From the NCBI GenBank assembly GCA_964567265.1, contig CAZMLK010000001.1:91311-155310 (forward strand): a stretch of DNA of 64,000 nt, written 5' to 3'. Origin of the DNA: an uncultured Candidatus Saccharibacteria bacterium (lineage in GTDB: Bacteria; Patescibacteriota; Minisyncoccia; Phycocordibacterales; UBA12088). The notes under the pieces were generated by a model. It was not told where the DNA came from. It did no database searches and saw only the letters and a list, made by a program, of their open reading frames with translations. Positions within the stretch are counted from its first letter, which is position 1. Each line of letters opens with the position of its first letter. Below are positions 21,449 through 61,380 of this stretch, in pieces. Made by a program: the position numbers and the translations under genes.

Positions 21449-21473
21449 GAAGGTTTTTTCTGTTGTACAGTGT

Positions 21474-24420: not shown

Positions 24421-24423
24421 GGA

Positions 24424-26191: not shown

Positions 26192-27985
<1,794 letters not shown>

Positions 27986-28024
27986 CCAAAAAGCCCCGCA
28001 AGCAGAGCTTGCGGGGCTTTTTGT
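27986..28024. terminator. intrinsic terminator after lepA (bidirectional)
   Basis: aagccccgcaagc-agag-cttgcggggctt + tttg. Confidence 0.65.
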
Positions 28025-41903: not shown

Positions 41904-41990
41904 GCGAATCGACCACAACTGCATATCCTCCCACTCTGTCCGCTGGACACCGTACGCTTCCGATTCGCGAGAAGCACGCGGTGTCTCAGT

Positions 41991-44159
41991 GTGAATGAGG
42001 ACGCTTTCAAGAACATGGTTTTTTACGACAAGTCACAAAAAAGAACGCAGTATTTCCACGCATCCCTGATCGGATTCGGCTGCTTCGTGTTCATCTCGGT
42101 CGCGTTCGCGCTCGCAGGCCTCTCGTTCCAGAAAGTCGGTGAGTACCGCACGGCAAAGGATGTCGCGTACAAACAGACCAATGACAAGGTCTTGGCGCTC
42201 ACGTTCGACGACGGACCGGATCCGGTCTTCACGCCGGAAATCCTCGCGATCCTGAAAGAAGAGAAGGTGCCGGGCACCTTCTTCGTGATCGGCGAGCACG
42301 TCATGGAGCATCCGAGCATCATCCGCGACATCAACGAGGCAGGGTTCGAGATCGGCAACCACACATACACCCACTCAGAGGCAGTGCATAATTCGCCGGC
42401 ACGCCTCCAGATCGAGCTCACGGCGACGGCGAAGGCGGTGGGGCAGATCACGGGCACGATGCCGCTCATGTATCGCCCGCCGTTCCTCCAGGACATCGGA
42501 CTCACCATGAACGGCGGACCGGTGCGCGAAGAGCAGCTTGAGGTCGCGCGCCAGCTCGGCTACGTCGTCGTCGGCGCCGACATCGAATCGCGCGACTGGG
42601 ATGCGGGCTCGGCCGAGCAGGTCGAGCAGATGGTGCGCGACAACCTGAAGGAAGGGCGGCACGTCATCCTCTTCCACGACGGCGGCGGTCCGGACCGCAC
42701 CAACACCATCAAGGCGCTCAAGAAGCTCATCCCTGAACTCAAGGCGGAAGGCTACACGTTCGTGCCCGCGTCCTATTTCTTCGGACTGAGCCAGAAGGAG
42801 GTAATGCCGCCGATCTCGTCGGTCACATCAATCGGTGACGGCGTCCTCTTTACCTACCTCCTCTTGATGGCGAAGCTCTCGGGAGCCATCGGCATCATCA
42901 CGCTCGCTGTCCTCGTGCTCACGTTCTTCCGCATCTCGACGATGCTCATCATGCGCTACGTGTTCGTCGCGGAGCAGAAGACCTACGGCAAGAAGCACGG
43001 CTATCGCGGAGCGGTCGCGGTCATCATTCCCGCATACAATGAAGAGGCGAACATCGATGCGACGATCACCAGCGTCATCGAGAACAGCCATCCGCCGGAC
43101 CAGGTCATCGTCGTCGACGACGGCTCGAAGGACAAGACGGCGGAGCGCGTGCGCGCGCTCATCGAGCACTATGGTGATCGGCTGCAGCTCATCCAGGTCA
43201 CGAACGGCGGCAAGGCGCGTGCGCTCAATATCGGCATCGCGTACGCACGCCCGAACATCGTCATCTGCATCGACGGCGACACCATTTTCCATCATGACGC
43301 GATCGCGAAGCTGATCCGCCATTTCGATGATCCGAAGGTCGGCGTTGTCGCTGGCAAGGTGGTGCCGGTCCGCGAGGAGACGCTCCTCGACAAGTTCCAG
43401 ATCGTCGAGTACATGATCGGGCAGAACATCGAGAAGGAAGTGCTCGCGGTCATGAACGCGGTCGGCGTGGTGCCGGGCGCGGTCGGCGCATGGCGGAAGA
43501 GCGTGATCCGCGCGCGCGATGGGTATCCGGAAGATACGATTGTCGAGGACCAGGACCTCACCCTCTCGTTCCTCGTGCAGGGGTACAAGATCGTGTACGA
43601 AGGGGAAGCGATCGCGTACACCGAGGCGCCGAACAACATCAAGGATTTCATGAAGCAGCGCTCGCGCTGGGTGTTCGGAACCTTCCAGTGCTTCTGGAAA
43701 TACCGGAAGCATGTGGGAAGCATGGAGCGTCCCAGCCTCGGCTGGATCGTGCTCCCGAACATCCTGCTTTTCAATACCATCCTCCCGCTCCTCACGCCGT
43801 TCATGGATATCTTCGCGCTGGTCACCATCCTCGAGGGCGGCGGCTTCAAAGGAGCTGTGATCGCGTTCTTCGTGTTCACGCTCATCGATATGACCTATGC
43901 CGCCCTCGCGATCGCGAGCGATCAGAATCCGCCGTACCGCCTCATCTGGACGGTAATCATCCAGCGCATCTTCTACCGCTACGCCATGTTCTATGTGGTC
44001 TCAGAAAGCATGATCAAGGCGATAAAGGGCAACATCGCGCCGAAGTCGCGCTGGAAGCCGCCGACCCGCCAGGGTCATGCGCAGGCAGCATTCGATGGCG
44101 TCAACCGGCTCGGCGGCCGGCCCGTCAAGCAGCCGATCACCGCGAGCATGTCGTCATAA
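41991..44159 (+). CDS. fused polysaccharide deacetylase (NodB/CE4) + processive family-2 glycosyltransferase (PgaB/PgaC- or IcaB/IcaA-like)
   Basis: N-terminal LTFDDGPDP...PGTFFVIGEH...NHTYTH (CE4 motifs). C-terminal VIIPAYNEE, VVDDGSKD, ICIDGDT, QRSRWVFGTFQ (QxxRW) with flanking TM helices. Confidence 0.85.
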   Translation: MNEDAFKNMVFYDKSQKRTQYFHASLIGFGCFVFISVAFALAGLSFQKVGEYRTAKDVAYKQTNDKVLALTFDDGPDPVFTPEILAILKEEKVPGTFFVIGEHVMEHPSIIRDINEAGFEIGNHTYTHSEAVHNSPARLQIELTATAKAVGQITGTMPLMYRPPFLQDIGLTMNGGPVREEQLEVARQLGYVVVGADIESRDWDAGSAEQVEQMVRDNLKEGRHVILFHDGGGPDRTNTIKALKKLIPELKAEGYTFVPASYFFGLSQKEVMPPISSVTSIGDGVLFTYLLLMAKLSGAIGIITLAVLVLTFFRISTMLIMRYVFVAEQKTYGKKHGYRGAVAVIIPAYNEEANIDATITSVIENSHPPDQVIVVDDGSKDKTAERVRALIEHYGDRLQLIQVTNGGKARALNIGIAYARPNIVICIDGDTIFHHDAIAKLIRHFDDPKVGVVAGKVVPVREETLLDKFQIVEYMIGQNIEKEVLAVMNAVGVVPGAVGAWRKSVIRARDGYPEDTIVEDQDLTLSFLVQGYKIVYEGEAIAYTEAPNNIKDFMKQRSRWVFGTFQCFWKYRKHVGSMERPSLGWIVLPNILLFNTILPLLTPFMDIFALVTILEGGGFKGAVIAFFVFTLIDMTYAALAIASDQNPPYRLIWTVIIQRIFYRYAMFYVVSESMIKAIKGNIAPKSRWKPPTRQGHAQAAFDGVNRLGGRPVKQPITASMSS

Positions 44160-44162
44160 ACA

Positions 44163-44207
44163 AAAAACCCACCGATTTGCACTAGTGCAAATCGGTGGGT
44201 TTTTTTG
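44163..44207. terminator. bidirectional intrinsic terminator
   Basis: aaaaaacccaccgatttgcac-tagt-gcaaatcggtgggttttttt between convergent genes. Confidence 0.7.
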
Positions 44208-44221
44208 ATGTGTGAAGTGAA

Positions 44222-45022
44222 TTATCGTCTCGTCGTCACCACCTTGGTCCAGGGACCCTTCGGCACCGCCGTGTCTTCGACGAAGCGCCACTCGACGTCT
44301 GAGATGTCGCCGACGCCGAGGCAGTCGCGCATCGCGGGCGAGAGGTCGATGCCTGCGCCCGCATCGAACGTGTTCTTCGATTTCATGTTGGTCCCGAATA
44401 CGTATGCGACATCGTCCTCCTCGAACGGACCGACATCTTGCCACTGCCCGTAGCAGGTCTTGTTTTTTCGCGTGACTTCGATCCAGTGGTTCTTGAGGAT
44501 CGATTTGCCGGCGCTGAGACTGAGCGCCTTCCCGGAATACCAATGCACGAGTGCAGCATTGTCCTTGCGGTCGCCTTCTTCGTCGAGATCGTTGTAGGGA
44601 AGCGCCACGTAGAACGGATTCTCCTTCGCGACGAACCGGCAGGGGTTGTATCCCGAGCGGCAGTCTGGGTCGTCGATGCCGCCATAGTGTTCCATCCACT
44701 GCTCGTCCCAGGCGCTCATGGCATTCGGAATGAAGTCGTTCGAGGCGTCCGCCTCTTCGCCTACCCAGAACACGGTCGCAATCGCGCTCTTGTAGCCGGT
44801 CTTGGTTGTCGTGGTAGTTGCGGTCGAGGTTGCAGTGGTCGTTCCTGCCAGCAATCCCTCAGGAGTGGTCGAGCTCGTTTCAGAAGATACAGAGGTGCTG
44901 GCGAATTCGAGGAAATTGTCATCGCTCGTGATTGGAGCAGTTTTGATGCCGTAGGCGAGGTATGCTGCCGCAGCGCCCACCGCCAACACAAAAAAGCCCA
45001 ATATCCCGAGCCATATTTTCAT
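44222..45022 (-). CDS. membrane-anchored secreted protein (hypothetical, Thr-rich linker + Cys-containing globular domain)
   Basis: Start at MKIWLGILGFFVLAVGAAAAYLAY. TTATSTATTTTTKTG linker. The C-terminal domain has conserved Cys (CRSGYNPC, CYGQWQDVGP, CLGVGD). Confidence 0.55.
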   Translation of the reverse strand: MKIWLGILGFFVLAVGAAAAYLAYGIKTAPITSDDNFLEFASTSVSSETSSTTPEGLLAGTTTATSTATTTTTKTGYKSAIATVFWVGEEADASNDFIPNAMSAWDEQWMEHYGGIDDPDCRSGYNPCRFVAKENPFYVALPYNDLDEEGDRKDNAALVHWYSGKALSLSAGKSILKNHWIEVTRKNKTCYGQWQDVGPFEEDDVAYVFGTNMKSKNTFDAGAGIDLSPAMRDCLGVGDISDVEWRFVEDTAVPKGPWTKVVTTRR

Positions 45023-45127
45023 GTGTGTTGTCAGCATAGAACCGCATGATACCATGGCAGCCGCAGCTCCCAAACGCCCGCGGTTGAGGCCCGATTTATT
45101 GGCAATCCATGTCCGAAATGGCAAGAT

Positions 45128-47845
45128 GTGGATACCACTTATTCATATCTATCCAGACTTTTCATGCACACATTCATGGCCCGTGCGCTGACCTCGGGAT
45201 TACTCGCATTGGTTGCGTTCTTCCCTACAGGAGCCCTGCTTGCCGAAACGGCCCCGGTGGCCGAGCCGCAAGCTACGGAGGCGGTCGCACCAGCTGCCGC
45301 CCCGCTCGATGGCCGGGGAAGCTCGATTCTTGTCGTGAAGGCGGCAAGCAACCCCTTCAGCGCATACTACGCCGAGATACTGCGCGCGGAGGGCTTCAAC
45401 AGCTTCACGTCGCTGGATCTTTCTCAAGTCACCGCGTCAGTCCTTTCGAGCTTCGATGTGGTCATCGTCGGCGACCTCTCGCTCACAGCCGCGCAGGTGA
45501 CGCTTTTCACGAATTACGTGAATGCGGGCGGCAACCTGATCGCGATGAGTCCGGACAAGAAGCTCTCCCCCTTGCTCGGCCTCACCGATGCATCCTCGAC
45601 CAGATCGAATGCGTATCTCCTCGTGAACACCGCGAATGATCCGGGAAAGGGAATCGTCGGTCAGACCATCCAGTATCACGGAAGCGCGGACCGCTATACC
45701 TTGAATGGCGCAACTGCGGTCGCTTCGATCTACTCGAGCGCGGCGACCAGCACTACGAATCCTGCGGTCTCCATCCGCTCGGTCGGCGGGAGCGGCGGAC
45801 AGGCAGCGGCATTCACGTTCGATCTCGCAAAATCCATCGTCTATTCGAGGCAGGGAAATCCGGCATGGTCCGGACTCGAGCGCGATGGCTCGGCACCCAT
45901 TCGTCCGAACGATCTTTTCTTCCCGGATTGGGTGAACTTGGACAAGGCGGTGATCCCGCAGGCGGATGAGCTCCAACGGCTCCTCGGCAACATGATCATA
46001 TATATGAATCAGGACAAGAAGCCGCTTCCGCGCTTCTGGTATTTCCCGAGCATGAAAAAAGCGGTCATCCTTATGAGCGGGGACGATCATGGGACCGTAG
46101 CGGGGACCAAGACCACATTCAATAATCTGATTGCGGCAAGCGCGCCTGGATGCGTCGTTGCGAATTGGGAATGCTACCGCGCGACATCGTGGCTCTATAC
46201 GAGCTCGCCGCTCACCAATGCCGAAGCGCTCGCGTATCACAACCAAGGATTCGAGATCGGCGTCCACGTGAGCACGAACTGCGCCGACTGGACTCCTGCG
46301 ACGCTTCCTGGATTCTTTACCAATGACCTCGCTGCGTTTGCTGCGAAGTACACCAGTCTTCCCGTGCAGCAGACCAGCCGCACGCACTGCATCGCCTGGA
46401 GCGATTATGCGACGCAGCCGAAGGTGGAACTCCAGAAAGGGATCCGGCTCGATGAGAACTATTACTACTGGCCGGCATCATGGGTCCAGAATCGCCCTGG
46501 CTTCATGACGGGTTCCGGCATCCCGATGCGGTTCGCCGATACGAATGGCGCACTCATCGATGTGTACCAGCAGCCGTCACATCTGGTGAATGAGAACGAC
46601 GTCAGCTATCCGGCCGGCATCAACAGCATGCTGGACAGGGCGCTCGGCGCTGAAGGGTACTACGGCGTCTTCGGCACGCACTACGACCACAGCGATGCGT
46701 TCGACAGCCAGCTCCTCGCGTCCGCGCAGACGCGGGGAGTCTCGCTGATTTCTGCCAAGCAGCTCCTCACGTGGTTGGATGGCCGTAATAATTCGACGTT
46801 CGGCACGACCACCTGGAACGGCAGCACGCTGACCTTCCCGGTAGTCGTCAGATCAGGCGCAGTGAACCTCTACACGATGATCCCGTTCAAGTCAGGCACG
46901 CTCCAGGTGACCGGCGTCAAGATCGGCGGATCGTCGGTCCCTTTCACCACCGACACGATCAAGGGCCGCGTGTACGCGCTCTTCAAGGTCACGAGCGGCA
47001 CGGTCGTCGCGACGTATGCGGCCGATACCGCGGCGCCAACGGTCGTCAGCGTCTCGCCCGCGAATGGCGCTCAGAATGTGAGCAGCAGTACGAATATCCT
47101 GATTACCTTCTCGGAAGCGATGACGGCCTCCTCGATCGGCACCTCGACCATCGAGCTCCGTGATCCCGCGAATGCGCTCGTCGCGCGTGCAGTGACTTAC
47201 AACACGGCCACCTTCACCGCGACGCTGAATCCGAACGCGAACTTACGCGCCTCGACGACCTACACCGTGAAGGTGAAGGGCGGCGCGACCGACCCGCGCG
47301 CGAAGGATGCATCGGGGAATGCGCTTGCCGTGAATTTCACGTCGACCTTCAAGATCTCCGCGACCGGCCAGGCGCCGACGGTGAGCCTCTGGAGCAGCAC
47401 CACGACTCCGGCTGTCGCCTCCGTGAATGATCCGAACGCGATCGAGCTCGGTGTGCGATTCCGTTCATCGGTCGCGGGTACGATTACCGGCATCAGGTTC
47501 TACAAGGGCGCTGCGAATACCGGCACGCATACAGGCACGCTCTGGAATGCGTCCGGGACATCGCTCGCGACAGGAACCTTTTCGGCAGAAAGCGCGACCG
47601 GCTGGCAGACGCTCATCTTCGCGAGTCCGGTCGCCATCACCGCGAACACGGACTACGTAGCCTCGTACTTCACCCCGACGGGGAATTACGCGGCCGACAG
47701 TAATTATTTTGCCGCAGCGCGCGTGAACGGCGTCTTGTCCGCGACGGCGGTCGTGAACGGGCTCTTCTCATACGGCCCGCACGCATTCCCGACTCAGAAT
47801 TTCCAGGCGACCAACTACTGGGTGGATGTGATCTTCCAGCCGTAG
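45128..47845 (+). CDS. large secreted surface protein with bacterial Ig-like domain and DUF4082
   Basis: Signal peptide. Ig-like segment TAAPTVVSVSPANGAQNVSSSTNILITFSEAM...TYTVKVKGGATD. DUF4082-like ELGVRFRSSVAGTITGIRFYKGAANTGTHTGTLW...TDYVASYF. Confidence 0.8.
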   Translation: MDTTYSYLSRLFMHTFMARALTSGLLALVAFFPTGALLAETAPVAEPQATEAVAPAAAPLDGRGSSILVVKAASNPFSAYYAEILRAEGFNSFTSLDLSQVTASVLSSFDVVIVGDLSLTAAQVTLFTNYVNAGGNLIAMSPDKKLSPLLGLTDASSTRSNAYLLVNTANDPGKGIVGQTIQYHGSADRYTLNGATAVASIYSSAATSTTNPAVSIRSVGGSGGQAAAFTFDLAKSIVYSRQGNPAWSGLERDGSAPIRPNDLFFPDWVNLDKAVIPQADELQRLLGNMIIYMNQDKKPLPRFWYFPSMKKAVILMSGDDHGTVAGTKTTFNNLIAASAPGCVVANWECYRATSWLYTSSPLTNAEALAYHNQGFEIGVHVSTNCADWTPATLPGFFTNDLAAFAAKYTSLPVQQTSRTHCIAWSDYATQPKVELQKGIRLDENYYYWPASWVQNRPGFMTGSGIPMRFADTNGALIDVYQQPSHLVNENDVSYPAGINSMLDRALGAEGYYGVFGTHYDHSDAFDSQLLASAQTRGVSLISAKQLLTWLDGRNNSTFGTTTWNGSTLTFPVVVRSGAVNLYTMIPFKSGTLQVTGVKIGGSSVPFTTDTIKGRVYALFKVTSGTVVATYAADTAAPTVVSVSPANGAQNVSSSTNILITFSEAMTASSIGTSTIELRDPANALVARAVTYNTATFTATLNPNANLRASTTYTVKVKGGATDPRAKDASGNALAVNFTSTFKISATGQAPTVSLWSSTTTPAVASVNDPNAIELGVRFRSSVAGTITGIRFYKGAANTGTHTGTLWNASGTSLATGTFSAESATGWQTLIFASPVAITANTDYVASYFTPTGNYAADSNYFAAARVNGVLSATAVVNGLFSYGPHAFPTQNFQATNYWVDVIFQP

Positions 47846-49877: not shown

Positions 49878-50396
49878 CTAGAAGTCAGTCCGCTCTACGA
49901 TCGTTGTGCAGGTGTTGATGATGCTATCGAGAGCCGCGACATCAGCGAGTCCGAGCTTGACTCGTGTCGCTTCGAGTACCATGCGAGATTCTCCCCATAC
50001 ACCGCCGGGAGCTGTCTCGACCGCAATATACTGATCACTTTCCACATCACCCGCAGCATCCTCGACCTGCATGATCTGAGGCTGCTCGGATTTCCAGGTG
50101 TTGCCGAAAAGCGCGAAGACCTTGTTTGAAAGCGTATTGTCCTCGTAGGAAAAAGAGAAGACACCGACGGGCAATCCATCCACACGGAATTCCATCATCG
50201 TGTCAGCGTTCGAGGGGTGGAAGCGCTCCACCGTGCTGAAGCGGGGTGAGCAATGCATTTCGATCCAGACCCAATCTTTTGTATCAGGGAGATCGGGCGG
50301 TAGGGTTGCAGCGACCATCGGTTGCGGTGGGGTTGGAGGTGCGGTCGCGCATCCGGAAAGGAGGAGCAAGGCAAGCGCGCAGAATCGCGAGTCCAT
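49878..50396 (-). CDS. lipoprotein (hypothetical)
   Basis: MDSRFCALALLLLSGCATAPP lipobox. Terminator downstream at 49838-49878. Confidence 0.55.
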   Translation of the reverse strand: MDSRFCALALLLLSGCATAPPTPPQPMVAATLPPDLPDTKDWVWIEMHCSPRFSTVERFHPSNADTMMEFRVDGLPVGVFSFSYEDNTLSNKVFALFGNTWKSEQPQIMQVEDAAGDVESDQYIAVETAPGGVWGESRMVLEATRVKLGLADVAALDSIINTCTTIVERTDF

Positions 50397-50533
50397 CGAT
50401 ATCTTCCTTCTGATCGAGGTGGAGACAGTAAATGTCTAGGAGAGAGCGTAGCATGAAGATTCCAAGCTGTCAGTGGATCGAAAATGAAGTGCCCCCGCCA
50501 GAACTGAAAGTTCTGGCGGGGGCATGGATATTC

Positions 50534-51076
50534 CTACGAGCTCGTGCGCGCCGGTACCTCGAACGCGCCAGGAGCACAATCTCCGAGGCGTTCGAGCGGA
50601 TTCGGCGCCGTGAACCCATCACGGATTGCGTATAACATCCACCGTTTCCGATTGTCAGAATCGGGCGACTCCATCGTGTGCCACGAGTCGCCATAAAAAG
50701 CATGAAAGGTGCGCTCGGGTTCCAGTGTCACGAGTTGAGGGGCTGACGGCGGAAGCACGGCGACCTCGACGACGAGCAGCGTGCCGTCCCGCTTAGTGAG
50801 TTCGGTCACCTGGAGGGTCCAGGCGATGTTCGTCATTGCTTCGTATCGGCGCGCGAAGAGATAGCTCCCGCACCTGAGCTCGGCCGATCTGAGCGACCGG
50901 TAGTTGCTCGGAAGCGAGGGCGTCTGTCCGTCAGTGCCGACGCCCATAAATTGCGACTCGCTCATGAGGAGGAATGTGGGGCCTGCATGCGTGATCGGAG
51001 GGAAGGCCCAGTCGGCGCGGACGCTGAAGAGGGAGGTGCATGTCCAGAGTACGATGGCAGCAATGAGTGCGTGCAT
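50534..51076 (-). CDS. secreted hypothetical protein
   Basis: Signal peptide MHALIAAIVLWTCTSLFSVRA. Terminator hairpin at 50489-50521. Confidence 0.5.
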   Translation of the reverse strand: MHALIAAIVLWTCTSLFSVRADWAFPPITHAGPTFLLMSESQFMGVGTDGQTPSLPSNYRSLRSAELRCGSYLFARRYEAMTNIAWTLQVTELTKRDGTLLVVEVAVLPPSAPQLVTLEPERTFHAFYGDSWHTMESPDSDNRKRWMLYAIRDGFTAPNPLERLGDCAPGAFEVPARTSS

Positions 51077-51233
51077 TTCAAATCTCCCTTCTGGAGTTTG
51101 GATAGGAAGAAGAGCGCTCTGGAATCACTCTGATCTTGTTTCCAGCAAGCGTCAAGTAACGGGAAAGAGAAAGCGCCTCGGGATTGCTCCCGAGGCGCTG
51201 GTGCCGGTTTCTAGAGCCGGCGATTGGGCTCTG

Positions 51234-51626
51234 TCAGTTGTCGACGACGACGTCTGCCTCCGGAACGACGCTGCCGACGATAAGCTTTCCGTTGTCTTCC
51301 CAGTCGACGACGATCGTGACGCGTTCGTCCTTGCAGTACGCGTTACTGACGCGACCCCGGGCGTCTGCCGTAAGCGTTGCATTCTGGTTGAGCAGCTTGT
51401 CGGTCGGCTGGACCAGCTTCCCGCTGTAGATATCGGGGACCAGACAGATCTTTCCAATGACATCGGGCGGGAAGTTATAGAACTGGCCGAGACCGGAACC
51501 ATCCGCCGCATGTGCGGATGGGATGGCGAGAAGGCGGGAGCCGATCTCGAATGCTCCGAGTAAGGTGCTGCCGATCACCAGTGTAGCTCCGGCGACTACG
51601 AAGCGGGCCTTGAGGTGCTTGGTCAT
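51234..51626 (-). CDS. secreted hypothetical protein
   Basis: Start at MTKHLKARFVVAGATLVIGSTLLGAFEIGSRLLAIPSAHA (signal peptide). Terminator at 51168-51200. Confidence 0.5.
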   Translation of the reverse strand: MTKHLKARFVVAGATLVIGSTLLGAFEIGSRLLAIPSAHAADGSGLGQFYNFPPDVIGKICLVPDIYSGKLVQPTDKLLNQNATLTADARGRVSNAYCKDERVTIVVDWEDNGKLIVGSVVPEADVVVDN

Positions 51627-52431
51627 GGACTGTACTCCAAGTGGTTGAGTTCGGTACCTACCGCTTGTTGTCGTTCCCCGAAAGGAAGGACAGGAAGAGC
51701 GTGAAGCCGACCATGGTCTCGTAGTACTGGCCGACCACGTTGCGGAGAACCGCATAGCCGATGATGCGCATACGCGCTTGGATACGGAACCAGAACAAGA
51801 TGCGTTTCGCGTTCCGGAGGTCACGATTGATCTCGCGGAGCTTTGTCTGGTCAACGGGCGTCAGCATGGAAATCACCCTCTTTTTAGCTGTCGAAGAAGT
51901 CGAATTTGTCTGGGGAAAACATACCACGAATACGTAGTAATGTCAATATGTGGAAGGAAGGGAGTGAATCGATGCTCACCCCACTTTTTGACCAAAATCA
52001 ATTTCGTGCCCCGCGAATTTTTGAAAAAATTCGCGGGGCACTCTTCAAACACGCACGCAACACGAAAATAGCAAGTATGAATTCTTCATGCTCTCAAGGA
52101 CACGCTATCGGACACGGAAATTGGCGGCTCCATAGAGCCGTTTTGTCTCAGCCAAAACGGTTTGTTTGACAGTCTTTTAGTGTCGTTTTCCTCACGAAAG
52201 GTGTGTATTACTTCCTCACATTTTCCTCATACTCGATTGCTATTATGTTGCTCTCACCAAGGAATGGAGCAGGCGAATGTAGCCAGTGCCGGAAGCTCTA
52301 CCCCTTAATTCAGTCCCCGACTTGGGGGCGAGAGTTACCGAGCGGTGGCATATGGGAGGTCGGTTCCATAGGCTCCTTCCGAAAAGGTGAAGAACATTAC
52401 AAGCACTGATTAGCTATAAATTTACGTCTCA

Positions 52432-53970
52432 ATGAAAAGAATACTTCTCGGTATCGGGATGATCGTCTTCGTCAGCGCGATTGCTGCCGGAGCGACGGGC
52501 GCGTTTTTCTCTGATACGGAGACTTCGACCGGCAACACCTTCACTGCCGGAGCGATTGATCTCAAGGTGGACTCGACGCAGCATTACAACAACGCGGTCT
52601 GTACCAATGGCGTCTGGGTACTCGCGGCTGGCCAAACCATCGCCGTGGACCAGTATCCGGTCCTTGGAAGCGCATGTACTGGTTCATGGACCCTGACTGA
52701 TCTCGGGCCGACGAACCAGTTTTTTAATTTCGGCGACGTGAAGCCGGGCGATCGCGGCGAGAACACTGTTTCTCTCCACATCGATAACAACAATGCGTGG
52801 GCATGTCTTGATCTCCGCACCACAGGCAACAACGAGAATACGCTCGTCGAGCCGGAGTCGGATGCAGGTGATGTGACGCTTGATCCGTCAGGCGGTGAGC
52901 TCGCGCAGAACATCAAGGTGTTCTCATGGCTCGACAATGCATCTACGAGTGGTGCTATCCCAGGTGACAACATCTGGCAGGCAGGCGAGCCGATGTTGTT
53001 CTCGCCGGTCGCGCTTTCAGGTCTTGGCTCGACCACGACGCTTCCGCTTGCTGACTCAGTCACCAACGGCGGCGCGACGATGGCGCCGGGCGTGACGAGC
53101 TACATCGGCCTCTTCTGGTGCGCAGGCAACCTGACCGCGGTCGCCGGTGTCATCACTTGCGACGGCTCAGCGATGGGCAACCAGTCGCAGACGGACTCCG
53201 CAACGACCACGGTCTCATTCCGCGTCGTGCAGTCCCGGAACAATCCGACCTTCCAGTGCAGCAATCAGGTGGTCGTTGAGGAGCCAATCACGGTTACCGT
53301 GACGGCAAATGATCTCGATGCAGGACCTGCGGCTTCCGCCGCAACGAATGGTCTCGGCAAGTGGTTCATGTACAACGACACGACCGACGTGATCGATAAC
53401 AACCTCGGTACCTTCGTTGCAGGTCCGGCTGGAGTACCGAATGGCGCAAATAGCATCCAGTTCGTACTCGGTGCAAGCCCGCTTGATCGGAAGAATATCG
53501 CCACCTTCAAGTTCCAGGGAACAGTACTCTCGACCATCACTCAGATGGGCTTCGGGGTGTACTCGCACGGAGGAACAGGCGGAGCGGGTCCGAATGAGTC
53601 ACCATTCCTCGCATTCAATGTCGACTTCTTCAACACGGGCGTCTTCCAGAATCGCCTCGTCTATGTCCCGACCATCAATACCGGGGCAGTGCCGCAGGAC
53701 ACTTGGAATTCATATGACGTGATTGCAGGAGGCGCAGCGAAGTGGGTCTACTCAGGTGCAAACTGGCCAGCTCCAAACGCGCAGCCAGGCACTACGCCGA
53801 AGACATGGGCGCAGATCCTTGCTGATTATCCGAGCGCCAAGATTCTTGGACTCGGCGGATGGCTCGGAATCCGTGTCGGCGAGCCAGGACCGACCAACTA
53901 CATCGGCAATGTCGACTTCTTCAAGATCGCGACAGGCGGACCGGTGACGACGTACGACTTCGGCAACTAG
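52432..53970 (+). CDS. TasA/camelysin-like (peptidase M73 family) secreted protein with SipW-cognate signal peptide, paralog 1
   Basis: MKRILLGIGMIVFVSAIAAGATGAFFSDTETSTGNTFTAGAIDLKVD matches the SipW-cognate class leader (AFFSD-E-S-N-F-AG-LDL). Downstream FNFGDVKPGD matches the TasA NLSNLKPGD box. Confidence 0.8.
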   Translation: MKRILLGIGMIVFVSAIAAGATGAFFSDTETSTGNTFTAGAIDLKVDSTQHYNNAVCTNGVWVLAAGQTIAVDQYPVLGSACTGSWTLTDLGPTNQFFNFGDVKPGDRGENTVSLHIDNNNAWACLDLRTTGNNENTLVEPESDAGDVTLDPSGGELAQNIKVFSWLDNASTSGAIPGDNIWQAGEPMLFSPVALSGLGSTTTLPLADSVTNGGATMAPGVTSYIGLFWCAGNLTAVAGVITCDGSAMGNQSQTDSATTTVSFRVVQSRNNPTFQCSNQVVVEEPITVTVTANDLDAGPAASAATNGLGKWFMYNDTTDVIDNNLGTFVAGPAGVPNGANSIQFVLGASPLDRKNIATFKFQGTVLSTITQMGFGVYSHGGTGGAGPNESPFLAFNVDFFNTGVFQNRLVYVPTINTGAVPQDTWNSYDVIAGGAAKWVYSGANWPAPNAQPGTTPKTWAQILADYPSAKILGLGGWLGIRVGEPGPTNYIGNVDFFKIATGGPVTTYDFGN

Positions 53971-54096
53971 CAGGTTTTCTCTCTAGCCGTCGAGGAGCGG
54001 AACATCCGCTCCTCAGGGCTGGAGGGAATCCAGTCAAACGAAATTATCAGGATTATTACTAACCCGTGCGCGTAGGCGCACCTAACACAAGAACAG

Positions 54097-54999
54097 ATGA
54101 AAAGAATTCTTCTCGGAATGGGCATGATTATCTTCGTCTCGGCAATCGCCGCCGGAGCAACGGGAGCCTTCTTCTCCGACACGGAGACCTCGACAGGCAA
54201 CACCTTCACGGCGGGCGCGATCGACCTCACGGTCGACTCGACGCAGCACTACAACAATGCGATCTGTAAGGAGGTGACTGCAGGAATCTTCCAGTGGCAG
54301 CTTGCTCCAAACGCAGTGTTGGCAGTCGATCAGTATCCCGTTATCGGTACCCCATGTACGGGTACTTGGGCAGCGACCAATCTGGGTGCGCAGTTCCAGT
54401 TCTTCAACTTCGGTGACGTGAAGCCGGGAGATCAGGGCGAGAACACCGTTTCTCTCCACATTGAGAACAATCCGGCATGGGCATGTGCCTTCATCAAGAC
54501 GACGGGCAACAATGAGAACGATCTCATCGAGCCGGAAGCAGATGCGGGTGATGTGACCTTTGGTGCTGGAAATGGTGAGCTCGCGCAGAACATCTCGGTG
54601 TTCGGCTGGCTCGACAATGCATCCACCAGCGGTGCAGTCGTTGGTGACAACATCTGGCAGGCAGGCGAGCTCGCGCTCTTTGCAACGACGACACTCAGTG
54701 GTCTCGGCGGTGCAACAACGACGCTTCCGCTCGCAGATTCACTGAACGGCAATACGCCGCTTGCAGGCGGCTCGACCAGCTACATCGGCCTCTACTGGTG
54801 CGCAGGTACGCTGAACGCGGGCACTCCGGGTTCAGTGACGTGTAACGGCGCATCGATGGGCAATCAGGCGCAGACTGACTCTGCGACGACAACGGTCAGC
54901 TTCTATGTGGAGCAGGCCCGCAACAATCCAAACTTCACCTGTGCAGCGCACAGCGGAAATCCGGTACAGGTCAGTTTGATTGATGAATCAAATTTCTAG
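54097..54999 (+). CDS. TasA/camelysin-like secreted protein, paralog 2
   Basis: The N-terminal 60 aa are near-identical to paralog 1 (MKRILLGMGMIIFVSAIAAGATGAFFSDTETSTGNTFTAGAIDLTVD). FNFGDVKPGD box. Confidence 0.8.
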   Translation: MKRILLGMGMIIFVSAIAAGATGAFFSDTETSTGNTFTAGAIDLTVDSTQHYNNAICKEVTAGIFQWQLAPNAVLAVDQYPVIGTPCTGTWAATNLGAQFQFFNFGDVKPGDQGENTVSLHIENNPAWACAFIKTTGNNENDLIEPEADAGDVTFGAGNGELAQNISVFGWLDNASTSGAVVGDNIWQAGELALFATTTLSGLGGATTTLPLADSLNGNTPLAGGSTSYIGLYWCAGTLNAGTPGSVTCNGASMGNQAQTDSATTTVSFYVEQARNNPNFTCAAHSGNPVQVSLIDESNF

Positions 55000-55137
55000 C
55001 TTCTAGTTTCTCTCTAGCCGTTCAGGGGCGACCATTTCCCCGTCGCTCCTGCGGGCTGGAGAGACCCCGACTCTCATTCAGCTCCAGGCTTTATTATCGC
55101 GACGGGGAAATCGCGGACAGTTAAGACAAGAACAGCG

Positions 55138-56568
55138 ATGAAAAAGATCTTACTCAGCATTGCGATGGTGGCGCTCCTCTCGGGCGGCGTCATCGGCGCG
55201 ACCGGTGCATTCTTCAGTGACACCGAGACCTCAAGCGGCAATACCTTTGCCGCCGGCGCGATCGACCTCAAGGTCGACAACGAGTCGTATTACAACGGCA
55301 ACAAGTGCGTGGACGCGGACGGTGACGGACCGGGCCTCGAGCACATCTGGCAGGGTGCCGCGCTCTACCCGTCACCGGGCAGCGAATGCGATACGTCGTT
55401 CCCAGCGAGCGATCTCGACAACGGTCTCTTCTTCTTCCACTTCGAGGACCTGAAGCCGGATGATGAAGGCGAGGACACTATCTCGCTCCATGTCGACAAC
55501 AATGATGCCTACGCCTGCATGGATCTCACGCTCACCTCGAATGATGACAAATCATCGAATGAGCCTGAGCTCGAAGTCGATGCGCCTGAGGATATCAACA
55601 ACACCTGGGATGGCGAGCTTGCGGGCGCGCTCCAGTTCTTCTGGTGGGCGGACGACGGCGACAATGTCTATGAAGACAATGAGCAGACGATTTCCGGCGG
55701 CGTGAAGACGCTTATGGATCTCGCATCGACGACGGGACCGTTCTCAGTCGCGCTTGCAGACTCGGTATCGAATGTCTGGGGCACTCCGGGTCCGATTCCT
55801 GGCAATCAGACGAGGTACATCGGCAAGGCGTGGTGCTTCGGAACGCTGACCTTGAACCCGCTTCCACAGGGGCAGGGACTGAGTCCGTCAGTCGCAACCG
55901 GCGTCACTTGTAACGGCACTTCGCTCGGCAATCTCTACCAGACGGACGGCGTGACGCTTGATGTCGCGTTCCGCACCGTGCAGGCCCGCCACAATCCGAC
56001 CTTCCAGTGCGGTAATACGCAGACTCGGACCGCGAAATTGACGGTCGTGAAGCAGATCATCAATGACAACGGCGGCAACAATGTTGTCCCAGACTTCCAG
56101 CTCAAGGTGGTTGGCACGGTGGTGACTCCGGTCACGAGCGGTGCGACGACCACTCTTGCGGTCGGAAACTACACGGTCACTGAGACGGGCGTCTCCGGGT
56201 ACGTTGCCTCATTCAGCGGCGATTGTAATGCATCCGGACAGATCACGCTTGTAGCAGGCGATGAGAAGATTTGTTACATCACCAACAATGACCTTCCAGC
56301 GAATATCACGCTGATAAAGAACGTCGTTGGCGGAGTTGCGGACCCCGTCCAGTTCTCGATGCGCGTTGATGCAGGTCTCGTGCAGAACAACACGTCGGTC
56401 GCGGTCACCTCGAATGCAGTGCACACAATCACTGAAGATGCGTTCCCTGGGTATCACTTCACCTCGATCACTGGCGCGGGCTGCCCAGCAACGCTTCCAG
56501 GTAATGTCAGTTTGACCGAAGGACAGGCAATCGTTTGTACGATTACGAACACGGCAAACGGAAACTAG
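55138..56568 (+). CDS. TasA/camelysin-like secreted protein, paralog 3, with two C-terminal Ig/prealbumin-like beta-sandwich repeats
   Basis: MKKILLSIAMVALLSGGVIGATGAFFSDTETSSGNTFAAGAIDLKVD. FEDLKPDD box. C-terminal tandem ~85-aa repeats, each ending C-x-ITN. Confidence 0.8.
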   Translation: MKKILLSIAMVALLSGGVIGATGAFFSDTETSSGNTFAAGAIDLKVDNESYYNGNKCVDADGDGPGLEHIWQGAALYPSPGSECDTSFPASDLDNGLFFFHFEDLKPDDEGEDTISLHVDNNDAYACMDLTLTSNDDKSSNEPELEVDAPEDINNTWDGELAGALQFFWWADDGDNVYEDNEQTISGGVKTLMDLASTTGPFSVALADSVSNVWGTPGPIPGNQTRYIGKAWCFGTLTLNPLPQGQGLSPSVATGVTCNGTSLGNLYQTDGVTLDVAFRTVQARHNPTFQCGNTQTRTAKLTVVKQIINDNGGNNVVPDFQLKVVGTVVTPVTSGATTTLAVGNYTVTETGVSGYVASFSGDCNASGQITLVAGDEKICYITNNDLPANITLIKNVVGGVADPVQFSMRVDAGLVQNNTSVAVTSNAVHTITEDAFPGYHFTSITGAGCPATLPGNVSLTEGQAIVCTITNTANGN

Positions 56569-56651
56569 TTGAAATGGAATCCCGAGCGGCGAAGCCGCGC
56601 GGGGCCATTCCCAAAAATCGCATCATCCTCTAGCTCTCTCACACGTTCCCC

Positions 56652-57200
56652 GTGAAGACACTCACAAACATCTTCTACACAATCTTCGTAGCGCTCCTCA
56701 TTGGGATCGCGCTCATGCTCCTTGCCACGATGGTACCGATTCCCGGCAACATCGAGGTCAAGATCGTGAAGTCGGGCTCGATGGAGCCGACCATCCACAC
56801 GGGCTCCCTCGTCGTGGTGAAGCCGGAGGCTGACTACAAGGTCGGCGACATCATCACATTCGGGGCGGATACGAAGACGCAGATCCCGACGACGCACCGC
56901 ATCATCGCGGACCAGGTCGCGGACGGGAAGATCTACTACACCACCAAGGGTGATGCGAACGAGGAGCAGGATTCGAACAAGACCCCGAAGGAGCTCGTGA
57001 TCGGGAAGGTGATCTTCACCCTCCCGTACGCGGGATTCATCACGGACTTCGCTCGGACCAAGCTCGGCTTCGTGCTCTTGATTGCGCTCCCGGCAGGCAT
57101 CGTCATCATCGACGAGCTCATGACCATCTGGGGCGAGGCAGCCGCGCTCCGCAGGAAGAAGAAAGCCGTCGTGGCGGAAGACACACGCAATGATTCCTAG
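56652..57200 (+). CDS. sipW: type I signal peptidase, SipW/archaeal-eukaryal (SPC18-like) type
   Basis: N-terminal TM. IVKSGSMEPTIHTGSLVVV (SGSMEP Ser box with downstream His). GDIITF. C-terminal TM LGFVLLIALPAGIVII. 182 aa. Confidence 0.8.
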   Translation: MKTLTNIFYTIFVALLIGIALMLLATMVPIPGNIEVKIVKSGSMEPTIHTGSLVVVKPEADYKVGDIITFGADTKTQIPTTHRIIADQVADGKIYYTTKGDANEEQDSNKTPKELVIGKVIFTLPYAGFITDFARTKLGFVLLIALPAGIVIIDELMTIWGEAAALRRKKKAVVAEDTRNDS

Positions 57201-59361
57201 TCCCTACCAAAAAAGCATAGTGAGCATGGATGGCGTCGTCCTCGTGGCGCGCCCGAAGAAGCAGGCGCTCCGCTCGCGCGCGTTCATGACGGACGGCATC
57301 CTGCCACCCGCGCGCCCGCTTGCGGCCGCGCGGGTGGCAGACGCGATCGTCGAGACCGCGCACGGCGTCGGCCGCGCCGCGAAGGGGCTCGCCTTCACCC
57401 TCCTCCTCTCCATCGTCTCGATCAACTTCACCGGCATCGGCTACACGCATGCGTACTTCAACGACAACGAGACCTCGACGAGTAACAAGTTCAACGCCGG
57501 CCTCATCGACTTCGACGCGCTCATCACCGCGAGCTCCTCAGCATTCGCGCGCATCAACTGCACGCCGCACGCGACCAGCTCGCAGATGATCGAGATCAAG
57601 CCGAACGCGAGCTCGAACCCGTTCAAGTACTATCCCGATGTCGACAACATGGGCGGCGACGAGTGCTTCTGCAACCAGATCGACGTCACCGCGTACCTGA
57701 ATGGCGTGAAGGTGTACAAGGGCCCGCTCGCAGGCCTCTCCTCGACCGCGACCACGACGACCGGCACGTGGAAATTCGAATTCTCGACCTCGGTCAACAC
57801 CGCGAACTACATGTGCTCCTATGATGTCGCCTTCAAGGGCTGGCAGACGCGCCACAACTATCCGTCGTACGAGCATGGCGGCTACACCGACATCGAGCGC
57901 GTGCACAATACGCTCTCCTCATGGGGCATCCGCATCAACAAGGTGTATGACGACGTCGGTCCCGGTCGCGGCGCCGAGGGCGACAACGAATGGGTGGAGC
58001 TTTACAACCAGACCAATACATCTATCAACCTCACGGGATGGAAGCTTTGCGACGGCGCGCTCTGTGATGCGTTCCCGACGACCACGAAGCGCATTCCTGC
58101 GGGAGGATTCGCGCTCGTGACCTCCGCGACCTCGACCTTCGACTACTGGAACGTGCCCTCCGGCATCCAGCGCATCGTGCTTCCGGACGGCCGCATCGGG
58201 GACGGCCTCGGCGATCACGCGGACATGCTCGTCCTCAAGCGTCCGGATGGCGCCATCGTCGATCAGATGAACTGGGGTACCATGAGCCCGGCATGGGTAA
58301 ACGTGAATGCGGATGTCTGGAGCCCGGGCGTCACCGATGATGCGGAAGGGAGCATGCTTGCCCGGAAGCCGACCGGATTCGACACGAACAGCGTCTCCGA
58401 CTGGGTGTCGCTCCTCCCGCCTGTCATCGATCTCGTGTCTCCTGACGAGGGTGACTTCGGCGCGATCTGGAAGCAGGGCGAGGTCCACAACATCCTCTGG
58501 ACTGCGCACAATCAGAACGGTCCGGATTCCGCACTCAAGATTGGCCTCTATCTCATCAAGGATACGAATGGCAACCATGTCATCGACAAGAATGACACCA
58601 TAAAAACCATCACCGCGAAGACCGACAATGACGGCCAGTACCAGTACAAGGTGCCGGGCGGATTCAAGGGCGACGCATGGATCCGCGCGATCGCGACGGG
58701 GCCTGAGAATCCGCTTGCGAACTCGATGACGACGAGCGGCAAGTTCACCATCGAGAAGCCGAAGAAGGGCGGCGGCGGGAATGACAATAGCGGCGAATGC
58801 GCGCTCGGCGATTTCGCACCCGATGATGACAGCGACTACGGCCACGACAAGCTCTTCGGGAAGATCGACGAGAAGATGAATTTCCTCGATGGCATCAACG
58901 CGGAGCTTGAGGAAAAAATCAACGACAAGCTTGATGATCTGCAGAGCAAGGTCGATGGACTCCTCGCGGGCGCGGGTGCCGCTGACTTCGGCGATGACGA
59001 CGAAGATGCCGCTCCGGCTGCAAGCGCGGATACGTCCTCAACCGGGACGACCACTGAAGCAGCTGCTCCGGAAAAGCCAGAGAAGCCGACGGCACCGGAG
59101 AAGCCCGAAAAGCCGAGCGATGTGGAGGAGCATATCGCGCCGAAGCAGGATGACGGCGGTTCGACTGCGGATGTTCCCGCTGATACGGGAAAAGCGCCTG
59201 GCTCGGATGATGACGAGACCGCGCTCCACGAGGACCAGAAAGATACGGTCGTGTCAGAGGCGCATGACAATACGTCGCCGGTCGTTCCGCCGACTCCGGT
59301 TGCACCCGAAAAGCCGACGGCACCAGTCAAGCCGACCGCGCCAACGAAGCCGACACACTAG
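57190..59361 (+). CDS. secreted protein with SipW-cognate-like leader, lamin-tail domain (LTD) and Pro/Lys/Thr-rich C-terminal tail
   Basis: Leader ...LLLSIVSINFTGIGYTHAYFNDNETSTSNKFNAGLIDF. LTD GEGDNEWVELYNQTNTSINLTGWKLCDG. C-terminal PEKPEKPTAPEKPEKP low complexity. Confidence 0.75.
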   Translation: MIPSPYQKSIVSMDGVVLVARPKKQALRSRAFMTDGILPPARPLAAARVADAIVETAHGVGRAAKGLAFTLLLSIVSINFTGIGYTHAYFNDNETSTSNKFNAGLIDFDALITASSSAFARINCTPHATSSQMIEIKPNASSNPFKYYPDVDNMGGDECFCNQIDVTAYLNGVKVYKGPLAGLSSTATTTTGTWKFEFSTSVNTANYMCSYDVAFKGWQTRHNYPSYEHGGYTDIERVHNTLSSWGIRINKVYDDVGPGRGAEGDNEWVELYNQTNTSINLTGWKLCDGALCDAFPTTTKRIPAGGFALVTSATSTFDYWNVPSGIQRIVLPDGRIGDGLGDHADMLVLKRPDGAIVDQMNWGTMSPAWVNVNADVWSPGVTDDAEGSMLARKPTGFDTNSVSDWVSLLPPVIDLVSPDEGDFGAIWKQGEVHNILWTAHNQNGPDSALKIGLYLIKDTNGNHVIDKNDTIKTITAKTDNDGQYQYKVPGGFKGDAWIRAIATGPENPLANSMTTSGKFTIEKPKKGGGGNDNSGECALGDFAPDDDSDYGHDKLFGKIDEKMNFLDGINAELEEKINDKLDDLQSKVDGLLAGAGAADFGDDDEDAAPAASADTSSTGTTTEAAAPEKPEKPTAPEKPEKPSDVEEHIAPKQDDGGSTADVPADTGKAPGSDDDETALHEDQKDTVVSEAHDNTSPVVPPTPVAPEKPTAPVKPTAPTKPTH

Positions 59362-59363
59362 AT

Positions 59364-60815
59364 ATGCACGCACTTCGAAATCTATTCCTCGGGTTCTCCG
59401 CATTCCTGGTCCTTGCTGGGAGCGCTCCCTATGTCGCGAACGCAGCGAATCTCGATGTCGTCTTCGAAGCGACGCCGCTTTTCAGCGAGGCGAACATCTT
59501 GCCCGGTGATACGGTGACGAGAAGTGCGCAGGTCTCGAACCTCACCGACGCGCCGCAGGATGTGTACGTGAAGGCGGTGAACGCTGCATTCTCAGGCACG
59601 CTCTCGGACGCGCTCACGATTACGGTGAAGAAGGGCGCGACGACGTATTTCTCCGAAAGCCTCACTGCATTCCTCGATGGCACCCCGCGCGCGCTGACCC
59701 AAGATCTTGCCGCATCTGATAGCGAGGAGTACGCGTTCATCGTCTCCTTCGCACCCGGCTCGGCCAATGAGTACCAGGATGATTCCGTCGTATTTGATTT
59801 CTGTATTGGATTCGCAGGCGGTCCGAACACTTGTATCACTGACGGTGTGGGTGGCGACAAGGGCGAAGCGACAATCGCCTCCTTTGGGGGCGAGTCACAT
59901 GGAGGCGGAGACGGGCCGAATGCATCGAGGGCGGCTGACAGCGGCTCTGGAGGCGGAAACGGAGGAGGTGGAACAGGTGGAAACGGCGGCGGTGCGGGTG
60001 CGCTCGTCATCTTCAACGAGAAGGCGAGCGGTATCAATGATGCTGCGGGAAATGCCGCGATCACTTGGAACACCAACATGCCGGCGACCAGCCGCGTGGT
60101 GTATGGCCCGCGTCCGGACGCCGCGGTCCCGTTCCCGTATGTGCTCGATGTGACCGATCAAAATTTTGGCTATCCGAATACGACGGTCGAGAATCCGCTC
60201 CTCGCGGAAATACATGGCGAGATTATTGAAGGGCTGGCGCCCGGGACCTACGTCGCACGTGTCGTGTCGCGCACGATTCCAGGCGGAGCGGAAACCGTCT
60301 CTCCGCAGTTCACCTTCACGCTCGCGCCGAATGGCACGCTGACGTTTGCACGCGCCGCCGGCACGACCGGAAGCGGGAATGTGTTTGGGAAGGGGGCCGG
60401 CGGCGGAAGCAGCGAAGCGACGACGACCGAGGAGGTCGGCGGATTCTTTGAGACGCTGACGCTTCCAGCCATCGACAATGGCGGTCCGATCGATCAGGCG
60501 GCTGCCGCCGCACTTTCGGTCCCCGCATGGCTCGCTGACAATCTTTCATGTCTTGCGATAGCGCTCGCCATACTCGTCTTCGCATACATCGCGTGGTCCC
60601 TCTTCGACCGCCGACGCGGCCACCACTATGACCACATCGAGCGCGCGAAGATCCGGAATGCATACTTCCTCGCGGGCTCATCGCTCGGGATCATTCTCAT
60701 GGCCGTTCTCGGATATCTCTGCGTCCTCCCGTTTCTCCTTTTCTTCGCGATCGTGTTCCTCATCTGGTACATCGTGCTCTTCTTCCAGGAGCGGGATGAG
60801 GAAGGGGATTGGTAA
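59364..60815 (+). CDS. secreted, C-terminally membrane-anchored protein (possible fibre anchor/assembly factor)
   Basis: Signal peptide. Gly-rich tract GGGNGGGGTGGNGGGAG. FN3-like segment ITWNTNMPATSRVVYG. Two C-terminal TM helices. Confidence 0.65.
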   Translation: MHALRNLFLGFSAFLVLAGSAPYVANAANLDVVFEATPLFSEANILPGDTVTRSAQVSNLTDAPQDVYVKAVNAAFSGTLSDALTITVKKGATTYFSESLTAFLDGTPRALTQDLAASDSEEYAFIVSFAPGSANEYQDDSVVFDFCIGFAGGPNTCITDGVGGDKGEATIASFGGESHGGGDGPNASRAADSGSGGGNGGGGTGGNGGGAGALVIFNEKASGINDAAGNAAITWNTNMPATSRVVYGPRPDAAVPFPYVLDVTDQNFGYPNTTVENPLLAEIHGEIIEGLAPGTYVARVVSRTIPGGAETVSPQFTFTLAPNGTLTFARAAGTTGSGNVFGKGAGGGSSEATTTEEVGGFFETLTLPAIDNGGPIDQAAAAALSVPAWLADNLSCLAIALAILVFAYIAWSLFDRRRGHHYDHIERAKIRNAYFLAGSSLGIILMAVLGYLCVLPFLLFFAIVFLIWYIVLFFQERDEEGDW

Positions 60816-61196
60816 TCGCGCAGATTGACCGGCGGATATTTTCATAGTAAAACGATGGCAGACAAACCAGCGGAGGGCTTTGCATGTTTGATCTGTTTAC
60901 TGCCCGAGACGCTACTCGGCAACTCATTGCGGCAGCACTGACCGCGATCGTCATTTCGCCATACGGCTACGCTCCTGGGGGGATGTACGCCGCGCCTTGG
61001 TGGGAGCCCAGCTGGTCCCGTGCATCTCCATCAGTCCCGTCATTTCGCAAAAAGAAGCGGAGGCTGTTGGCAGCGAAGCAAAAACGAAAGAAGCGTGTAC
61101 GGCCGAACAAGCGGTATCAGCGTTCACTGCGGTAACTTCGCAATCACACAAAGTGGCCTATGCCGAAAGAGTAGGGAGAATCTAGTATGGGCTGGG

Positions 61197-61340
61197 GATA
61201 TGCGTGGCGACATTGGGTGGCGCGGAAGCAGGCGCTTGCAAAGCGGAAGCGTCGCCAAATTGACCAGCTTGCCGCCGCGGAAGCGCAAGGGAAGCCGAAG
61301 CGCAGACGCGGCCCGATATCGTTGTGGTGATGGGGAAGCC
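61197..61340 (+). CDS. possible 47-aa basic Trp/Arg-rich small protein
   Basis: RBS gggaga upstream. MGWGYAWRHWVARKQALAKRKRRQIDQLAAAEAQGKPKRRRGPISLW. Strong terminator at 61332-61380. Confidence 0.35.
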
Positions 61341-61380
61341 CCCGGCCGGTCAGAATGACCGGCCGGGGGCGCACTTTTTG
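61332..61380 (+). terminator. intrinsic terminator
   Basis: ggggaagcccccggccggtc-agaat-gaccggccgggggcgc + actttttg. Confidence 0.7.

Follow-up and report, generated by a model that had tools for sequence, protein, structure and literature searches.

Operons in which a dedicated archaeal-type signal peptidase, SipW, is encoded next to its substrates are known from Bacillus subtilis (tapA-sipW-tasA) and B. cereus (sipW-tasA-calY). In the strand complementation described for the B. subtilis proteins, TapA gives TasA its first donor strand (PMC10151520, as relayed in PMC11821415). In Clostridium perfringens, BsaA forms a surface-associated polymer that is built after strand exchange and is locked by intermolecular isopeptide bonds, which arise from a conserved Asn/Lys/Glu triad (PMC11580942). 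For the haloarchaeal Tafi system, the current model comprises a tip (TafC), a shaft (TafE and TafA) and an anchor (TafF); TafF has a Sec signal, unlike the pilins, together with a pilin-like N-domain and three C-terminal transmembrane (TM) helices (PMC11821415, PMC12337348). The Tafi roles are themselves partly predicted. Here we describe a six-gene locus from an uncultured bacterium of the Patescibacteria, or candidate phyla radiation (CPR). It lies in GenBank assembly GCA_964567265.1, contig CAZMLK010000001.1, positions 91,311 to 155,310 of the forward strand; this whole stretch of 64,000 nucleotides is referred to as the window, and all coordinates are numbered from its first letter. The locus encodes, with a probability that we put at roughly 0.7, a membrane-anchored cell-surface fibre of the TasA superfamily that is assembled outside the membrane of a monoderm patescibacterium.

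All six open reading frames (ORFs) were confirmed on the + strand, and the window sequence is identical to the Logan assembly of SRR16481186. The features of the locus are as follows.

52432-53970, + strand: subunit A, 512 aa
54097-54999, + strand: subunit B, 300 aa, the minimal form, with only leader, donor-strand motif and TasA-like core
55138-56568, + strand: subunit C, 476 aa
56652-57200, + strand: sipW, 182 aa, a signal peptidase I of the archaeal/endoplasmic reticulum type
57190-59361, + strand: protein D, 723 aa (711 aa if the start is at 57226)
59364-60815, + strand: protein E, 483 aa
61338-61370, + strand: strong intrinsic-terminator-like hairpin, 15-bp stem with 13 GC pairs and a T tail

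Subunits A, B and C begin with a common leader, GATGAFFSDTETS(T/S)GNTF(T/A)AGAIDL. The segment GATGAFFSDTETSTGNTFTAGAIDL is present in both A and B, and the version in C, GATGAFFSDTETSSGNTFAAGAIDL, has two substitutions. A weaker copy, AYFNDNETSTSNKFNAGLIDF, is found in D at residues 88-108, on the C-terminal side of a hydrophobic segment at residues 66-85. The model for SipW-cognate signals, TIGR04088 (cognate_SipW), spans the hydrophobic h-region and the conserved post-cleavage motif and has a curated cut-off of 19 bits, which is exceeded by A (23.4 bits), B (25.3), C (22.6) and D (20.6); E gave no match to it. The shared leader is not a product of chance, because A, B and C are paralogous over ~285 aa and all four leaders exceed this cut-off. 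An earlier interpretation of the same DNA made from its letters alone, here called the sequence-only reading, had recognized near-identical SipW-cognate leaders in three tandem genes and a degenerate leader in a fourth protein, and both observations are borne out by the profile scores. The leaders of A-C begin with MKRILLG or MKKILLS, no twin-arginine (RR) motif precedes the h-region in any of A-D, and the four leaders fit the Sec-type SipW class represented by TIGR04088.

The relationship to TasA that can be traced by sequence lies in the same region. The gathering score of PF12389 (Peptidase_M73), 22.5 bits, is passed by A (24.8 bits, aa 5-50), B (25.9) and C (23.4), whereas D (14.7) falls below it. 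The match is limited to profile positions 4-51 of 196, corresponding to residues ~2-50 in A-C, with the mature domain outside, so that the assignment to Peptidase_M73 in the sequence-only reading holds for the N-terminal ~50 residues only. When a profile of 34 family members was compared by hhalign with B. subtilis TasA, whose sequence was verified against PDB entries 8AUR and 5OF1, residues 1-48 aligned with an E-value of 9.2e-5. This alignment takes in the signal and the experimentally defined mature N terminus of TasA, A28, and on this basis the leader and the mature N-terminal donor-strand segment of A-C are considered homologous to those of TasA. Because the 48 residues include A28, the predicted SipW cleavage site of A-C is probably between Gly23 and Ala24 (GATG↓AFFSD); in A the SipW-cognate leader thus occupies aa 1-23 and is followed by the donor-strand-like motif AFFSDTETSTGNTFTAGAIDL at aa 24-44. 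The ~20 residues after the predicted cut are mostly invariant or nearly so (34 homologues, mean column identity 56%). Despite this conservation they are disordered in both AlphaFold2 (AF2) monomer models, as would be expected of a strand destined for a neighbouring subunit. The KPGD-type box reads VKPGD in both A and B, and LKPDD in C; its equivalence to the TasA KPGD box, which had been proposed from the letters, is without significant support.

The product of 56652-57200 scored 114.7 bits with the archaeal-type model TIGR02228 (sigpep_I_arch; cut-off 51.85) and only 32.2 bits with the bacterial LepB-type model TIGR02227 (cut-off 47). It aligned with human SEC11C (E-value 6e-13) and SEC11A (E-value 2e-11), with SGSMEP, HR and KGDxN conserved. 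Its residues Ser43 (SGSMEP), His82 (PTTHR) and Asp101 (KGDAN) fall on columns conserved with both human proteins, which are those of the catalytic residues of SEC11. The polypeptide comprises a first TM helix (aa 1-34), an external catalytic domain that includes Ser43, His82 and Asp101/Asp107, and a second TM helix (aa 133-161). Because the TIGR02228 score far exceeds that with TIGR02227 and the SEC11 alignment includes Ser43 and His82, the protein is assigned by sequence to the SipW class, with a Ser-His pair and no Ser-Lys dyad of LepB, as the name SipW-type (archaeal-like) peptidase had implied.

The paralogy of A, B and C extends over ~285 aa, with identities of 72% between A and B (284 aa), 43% between A and C and 38% between B and C. 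In A, a cysteine-rich TasA-like core that ends at ~aa 285 is followed by a C-terminal domain of ~225 aa (window 53290-53967) for which no Pfam match and no sequence relative in the PDB were found; the same domain occurs in family members of ~500-520 aa. In C, the core is followed by two SpaA_2/prealbumin-like (immunoglobulin (Ig)-like) domains at aa 298-381 and ~415-473, matched by PF19403 (SpaA_2) in two stretches with an E-value of 1.9e-10; these are the Ig-like repeats that the sequence-only reading had placed in one paralog. Two independent methods placed the TasA fibre first among the structural matches of the core, with AbpA, the Saci_0406 thread and CanX next; each of these four named filaments, the best-ranked of their kind, is a donor-strand polymer. 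The core has a jelly-roll/beta-sandwich fold like that of TasA, and the similarity is moderate. Beyond the leader, A, B and C therefore appear TasA-like not by sequence but, moderately, by modelled structure. The core family has six invariant cysteines (C57, C87, C130, C235, C249 and C282 in B), and C has four further cysteines within its Ig-like domains. Together with two cysteines that are invariant in the family of the N-terminal domain of D (D-N), this pattern suggests that a CPR organism has extracellular domains stabilised by disulfides.

Protein D comprises, in order, a cytoplasmic pre-leader of 65 aa, the h-region TM helix (aa 66-85), the motif, the D-N beta-sandwich to ~aa 245, a lamin tail domain (PF00932; aa 247-363, 47.7 bits, cut-off 34.3, E-value 2.3e-12), a further beta domain (~aa 405-525) and a long acidic, disordered tail rich in Pro and Ala. 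The AF2 model of residues 61-260 (predicted local distance difference test score 85) contains a leader helix and a sandwich of eight strands, with the donor motif unstructured. An alignment of 30 D-N sequences, used as the query, retrieved two true relatives only; an exhaustive representative search on D-N resolved this, giving 729 cluster representatives at an E-value of 1e-3 or less, and 111 of the best 150 D-N relatives also contain a lamin tail domain. Protein E begins with an ordinary signal peptide (aa 1-27, VANA↓AN), followed by an N-domain (E-N), a Gly-rich linker and an FN3-like domain; E homologues have a match to PF16656. It ends with three TM helices at aa 386-477 (hydrophobic segments 386-416 and 432-477), in keeping with the earlier description of the last protein as C-terminally membrane-anchored. 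The search with full-length E gave 12 proteins only, the word index being saturated by the Gly-rich linker.

The E-N and D-N families are related (hhalign probability 96.7-97.1%, E-values 1.6e-10 to 3.9e-10). When the two are aligned globally, a gap in E coincides exactly with the YFNDxExSxxNxxxAG motif of D, and the alignment resumes at LDV/LDF. Because the homology to D-N is accompanied by a gap located precisely at the motif, E is interpreted, from the alignment, as a D-N-type domain that lacks the donor strand and is tied to the membrane. The hhalign comparisons of D-N and E-N with the A/B/C core were not significant (E-values 0.19 and 0.35), so that D and E are linked to A, B and C solely by leader, operon and similar fold class. 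Comparisons of the D-N and E-N cores with the TasA core by the same method were also non-significant, the best being that of E-N (E-value 0.005, probability 7%), near the LPGD/KPGD box.

The six genes form a single transcription unit, because the terminator scan found no + strand terminator-like site between 52432 and 60815 and a strong terminator follows E, the hairpin at 61338-61370 closing the unit. The start of the locus had been placed at 52170, but 52170-52431 is non-coding upstream sequence and belongs to no gene. A + strand promoter scan of this interval, of a kind that is uninformative for CPR, found no sigma-70-like site upstream of A. Between E and the terminator there is an ORF of 83 aa (60884-61135, + strand) with a very basic C terminus, KKKRRLLAAKQKRKKRVRPNKRYQRSLR; the Logan assembly annotates it as a gene (L080 11521-11772), and it may be a seventh gene of the operon.

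Homologues of B numbered 2751 at an E-value of 1e-3 or less, and those with names come from Patescibacteria (Minisyncoccia, Yonath-, Kaiser- and Moraniibacteria). When species-representative genomes were scanned, 330 matches were confirmed and 79 loci obtained, almost all of them in metagenome-assembled genomes (MAGs) of CPR bacteria. The names of the homologues and the related loci confirm the CPR origin deduced in the sequence-only reading. Locus genes were assigned with hidden Markov models derived from the proteins of the window together with relatives of these. In 69 of the 79 related loci the region is informative, and in all 69 sipW lies directly 3' of two to four TasA-like genes (two in 22 loci, three in 35 and four in 12); in the remaining 10 the contig ends within 1.2 kb of the last TasA-like gene. 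The synteny comparison that had been suggested as a check therefore shows the TasA-like genes and sipW to be conserved together. Of the 58 loci whose sequence extends more than 2.5 kb beyond sipW, 46 contain a D-like gene and 16 an E-like gene; in 15 of these 16 the E-like gene comes after a separate D.

The sipW ORF reaches a length of 340-730 aa in 24 related loci. At least 15 of these 24 owe the extension to a D-like module that consists of a charged linker, a TM h-region, a SYFND-type motif and D-N (for example, L001 15261-16715, L016 14247-15800 and L075 14983-17178). The order in the fused ORFs (TM, catalytic domain, TM, charged linker, TM, cleavage motif) gives a topology consistent with external processing. 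The sipW and D genes of the window share 11 nt (57190-57200), read in different frames, and the SipW tail and the D pre-leader together amount to 86 aa, which matches the fusion linker in length. The closest relative, L001, has the fused form. The split between sipW and D is identical in the independent Logan assembly of SRR16481186, and it could represent a gene fission, a frameshift or an assembly error.

The locus can be compared with the known systems at several levels. With TasA, subunits A-C share the homologous leader and mature N-terminal donor-strand motif, and their core has its best structural match in the TasA fibre, a result that bears out the TasA fold that the sequence-only reading had proposed for structural checking. 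Each operon also encodes an accessory subunit that has a SipW leader of its own and could give the first donor strand, namely TapA in Bacillus and D here. The locus differs from the Bacillus operon in that (i) the mature domains are without detectable sequence similarity to TasA; (ii) the core is larger (~240 aa after the donor strand) and contains six invariant cysteines; (iii) the shaft paralogs number three, and A and C have additional domains at the C terminus; (iv) D carries a lamin tail domain and E is membrane-anchored; and (v) the host belongs to the Patescibacteria and not to the Bacillota. As had been stated, there is no TapA homologue: no match of A-E to a TapA/YqxM family was found in NCBIfam or Pfam at E-values of 1 or less. 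The equivalog model for B. subtilis TasA, NF046066 (cut-off 450 bits), gave 12.8 bits with C and no match with A or B, and that for Bacillus SipW, NF046067 (cut-off 190 bits), gave 120.4 bits over the full length of the peptidase. Because these scores fall short of the cut-offs, the operon proteins are, by profile comparison, not orthologues of TasA, Bacillus SipW or TapA.

Like the operon described here, the haloarchaeal Tafi has several pilin paralogs and a dedicated signal peptidase (TafD). A tip layout in which a pilin-like N-domain is joined to an adhesive domain is found in TafC and is proposed here for D. The parallel between E and TafF is one of architecture only, namely a Sec signal, an N-domain without the donor motif and three C-terminal TM helices. 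In contrast to the Tat signals of the Tafi pilins, the leaders of A-D are Sec-type SipW leaders; moreover, TafD contains four TM helices and acts together with TafG, and no counterpart of TafG or TafB was found here. The system resembles a TasA/SipW fibre operon in its workings and Tafi in its layout, and it is not Tat-dependent. The sipW-bsaA-bsaB-bsaC operon of C. perfringens has, like the present locus, sipW, tandem remote TasA homologues and a large accessory secreted protein (PMC11580942). There, however, the accessory protein BsaC is a von Willebrand factor A protein whose secretion is aided by type IV pilus genes, and sipW is the first gene, whereas here it follows the TasA-like genes. 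The archaeal subunits AbpA (7UEG), Saci_0406 (7PNB) and CanX come from hyperthermophiles, are much smaller than A-C and are processed by the general signal peptidase without a SipW-cognate motif.

In the assembly that we propose, A, B, C and D would be exported by Sec and their leaders then cut by the SipW of the operon. The cut would release the nearly invariant N-terminal segment, which is homologous to the TasA donor strand and lies outside the folded monomer in the models. This segment would insert as a beta-strand into the sandwich of a neighbour (donor-strand complementation), and A, B and C would be joined in this way into a linear heteropolymer, the shaft of which would be decorated by the C-terminal extras, the ~225-aa domain of A and the two Ig-like domains of C. 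Protein D would be the first, distal subunit and serve as primer, adhesive tip or both, as do TapA or TafC, and the last donor strand would be taken up by E, which would hold the fibre at the membrane in the manner of TafF. Use of the fibre for attachment to host cells or surfaces, or for matrix formation, is speculative.

Several points weigh against this fibre. Every step of the assembly is inferred. There is no significant sequence similarity to TasA beyond residue ~48: the comparison of the A1 core with the TasA core by hhalign gave an E-value of 0.23, which is not significant, and the core-family profile searched against the PDB found no TasA chain at E-values of 10 or less, only chance matches to flavivirus E at ~0.6-0.8. 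The six invariant core cysteines have no counterpart in TasA and could reflect a different way to stabilise or link subunits. In addition, an E-type anchor is not general, because E-like genes are present in only 16 of the 58 loci.

Among the alternatives, the one that survives best, although unlikely, is that these are secreted or surface proteins (adhesins, matrix or wall-associated proteins) that do not polymerise and share only a SipW export and processing signal, the motif being a recognition element for the peptidase and E being unrelated. The restriction of TasA sequence similarity to the leader region would agree with this, as would the moderate structural similarity, the generic fold of D-N and the C-terminal Ig-like, lamin tail and FN3-like domains, which are typical of monomeric adhesins. 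A recognition signal, however, would hardly account for ~20 near-invariant post-cleavage residues that are unstructured in the models, and a D-N homologue that lacks exactly the donor motif, as E does, is sensible only if the motif is a transferable strand. The conservation of multiple tandem paralogs in every locus and the donor-strand polymers that occupy the four best filament ranks likewise favour the fibre.

Less likely again is a fibre that is locked covalently, beyond donor-strand complementation alone, by disulfides or by intermolecular isopeptide bonds of the kind found in C. perfringens BsaA. BsaA provides the precedent, as a remote TasA homologue from a sipW operon that forms isopeptide-linked oligomers after strand exchange (PMC11580942), and six invariant cysteines are available in the A/B/C core and two in D-N. 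The even number of conserved cysteines is equally compatible with intramolecular disulfides, however, and Pfam and NCBIfam scans of A-E found no sortase or isopeptide-domain profile. That the proteins are camelysin-type metalloproteases or precursors of RiPPs (peptides made on the ribosome and modified after translation), as the Pfam name Peptidase_M73 and the JGI homologue name 'predicted ribosomally synthesized peptide with SipW-like signal peptide' in some automatic annotations would have it, is highly improbable and was rejected, because HExxH is absent from A-E, the Pfam match covers the leader only, the proteins are large (300-720 aa) with a folded beta-sandwich in the models, and the operon contains no modifying enzymes.

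Other genes for envelope or surface proteins form a cluster just upstream of the operon at 38814-47845.

38814-41903: protein with DUF11 and PG_binding_1, 1029 aa
41991-44159: fusion of a polysaccharide deacetylase and GT2
45128-47845: protein with Big_5 and DUF4082, 905 aa

Three small ORFs at 49878-51854 are on the - strand, divergent from the operon, and the first of them (49878-50396) has a lipoprotein-like LLSGC signal. Elsewhere in the window, a protein of 793 aa (19067-21448) is unusual in that a spermine/spermidine-synthase-like domain (aa 296-449) occurs together with an M28 peptidase domain at the C terminus (aa 578-786). The G+C content of the window shows a marked compositional step, from 0.50-0.51 at 8001-12000 to ~0.60 at 14001-28000.

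The presence of TasA homologues in Patescibacteria is not new in itself, since Wang et al. (2022) list the Patescibacteria among phyla with PF12389 homologues (PMC9245690), and names given by NCBI in Patescibacteria MAGs include 'SipW-dependent-type signal peptide-containing protein' and 'TasA family protein'. The claim of novelty in the sequence-only reading was overstated to this extent. Its remaining part, the architecture of the operon, with a tip-like D, an anchor-like E and SipW-D fusions, seems to be undescribed so far; we found no published study of TasA-like loci in CPR beyond one sentence in PMC9245690.

The locus type is very common and its gene order is highly conserved. How CPR bacteria, which are ultra-small and depend on hosts, attach to these is largely obscure outside the Saccharibacteria, in which type IV pili are implicated. 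A wider proposal, which we regard as tentative and rather doubtful at present, is that Patescibacteria, chiefly Paceibacteria/Parcubacteria, possess besides type IV pili a second conserved appendage, an anchored TasA-type heteropolymer with a lamin-tail tip that would bind the host envelope or extracellular DNA and mediate episymbiotic attachment, and that in many lineages SipW, made as a single chain with the distal tip subunit, processes this C-terminal passenger in cis and so primes assembly. In such fusions a signal peptidase would, unusually, form one polypeptide with the substrate that it acts on. If the fibre is real, Paceibacteria-type cells would have in it a major surface structure that has so far escaped study, and the layout of tip, shaft and anchor, so far proposed only for the haloarchaeal Tafi, would extend to bacteria.

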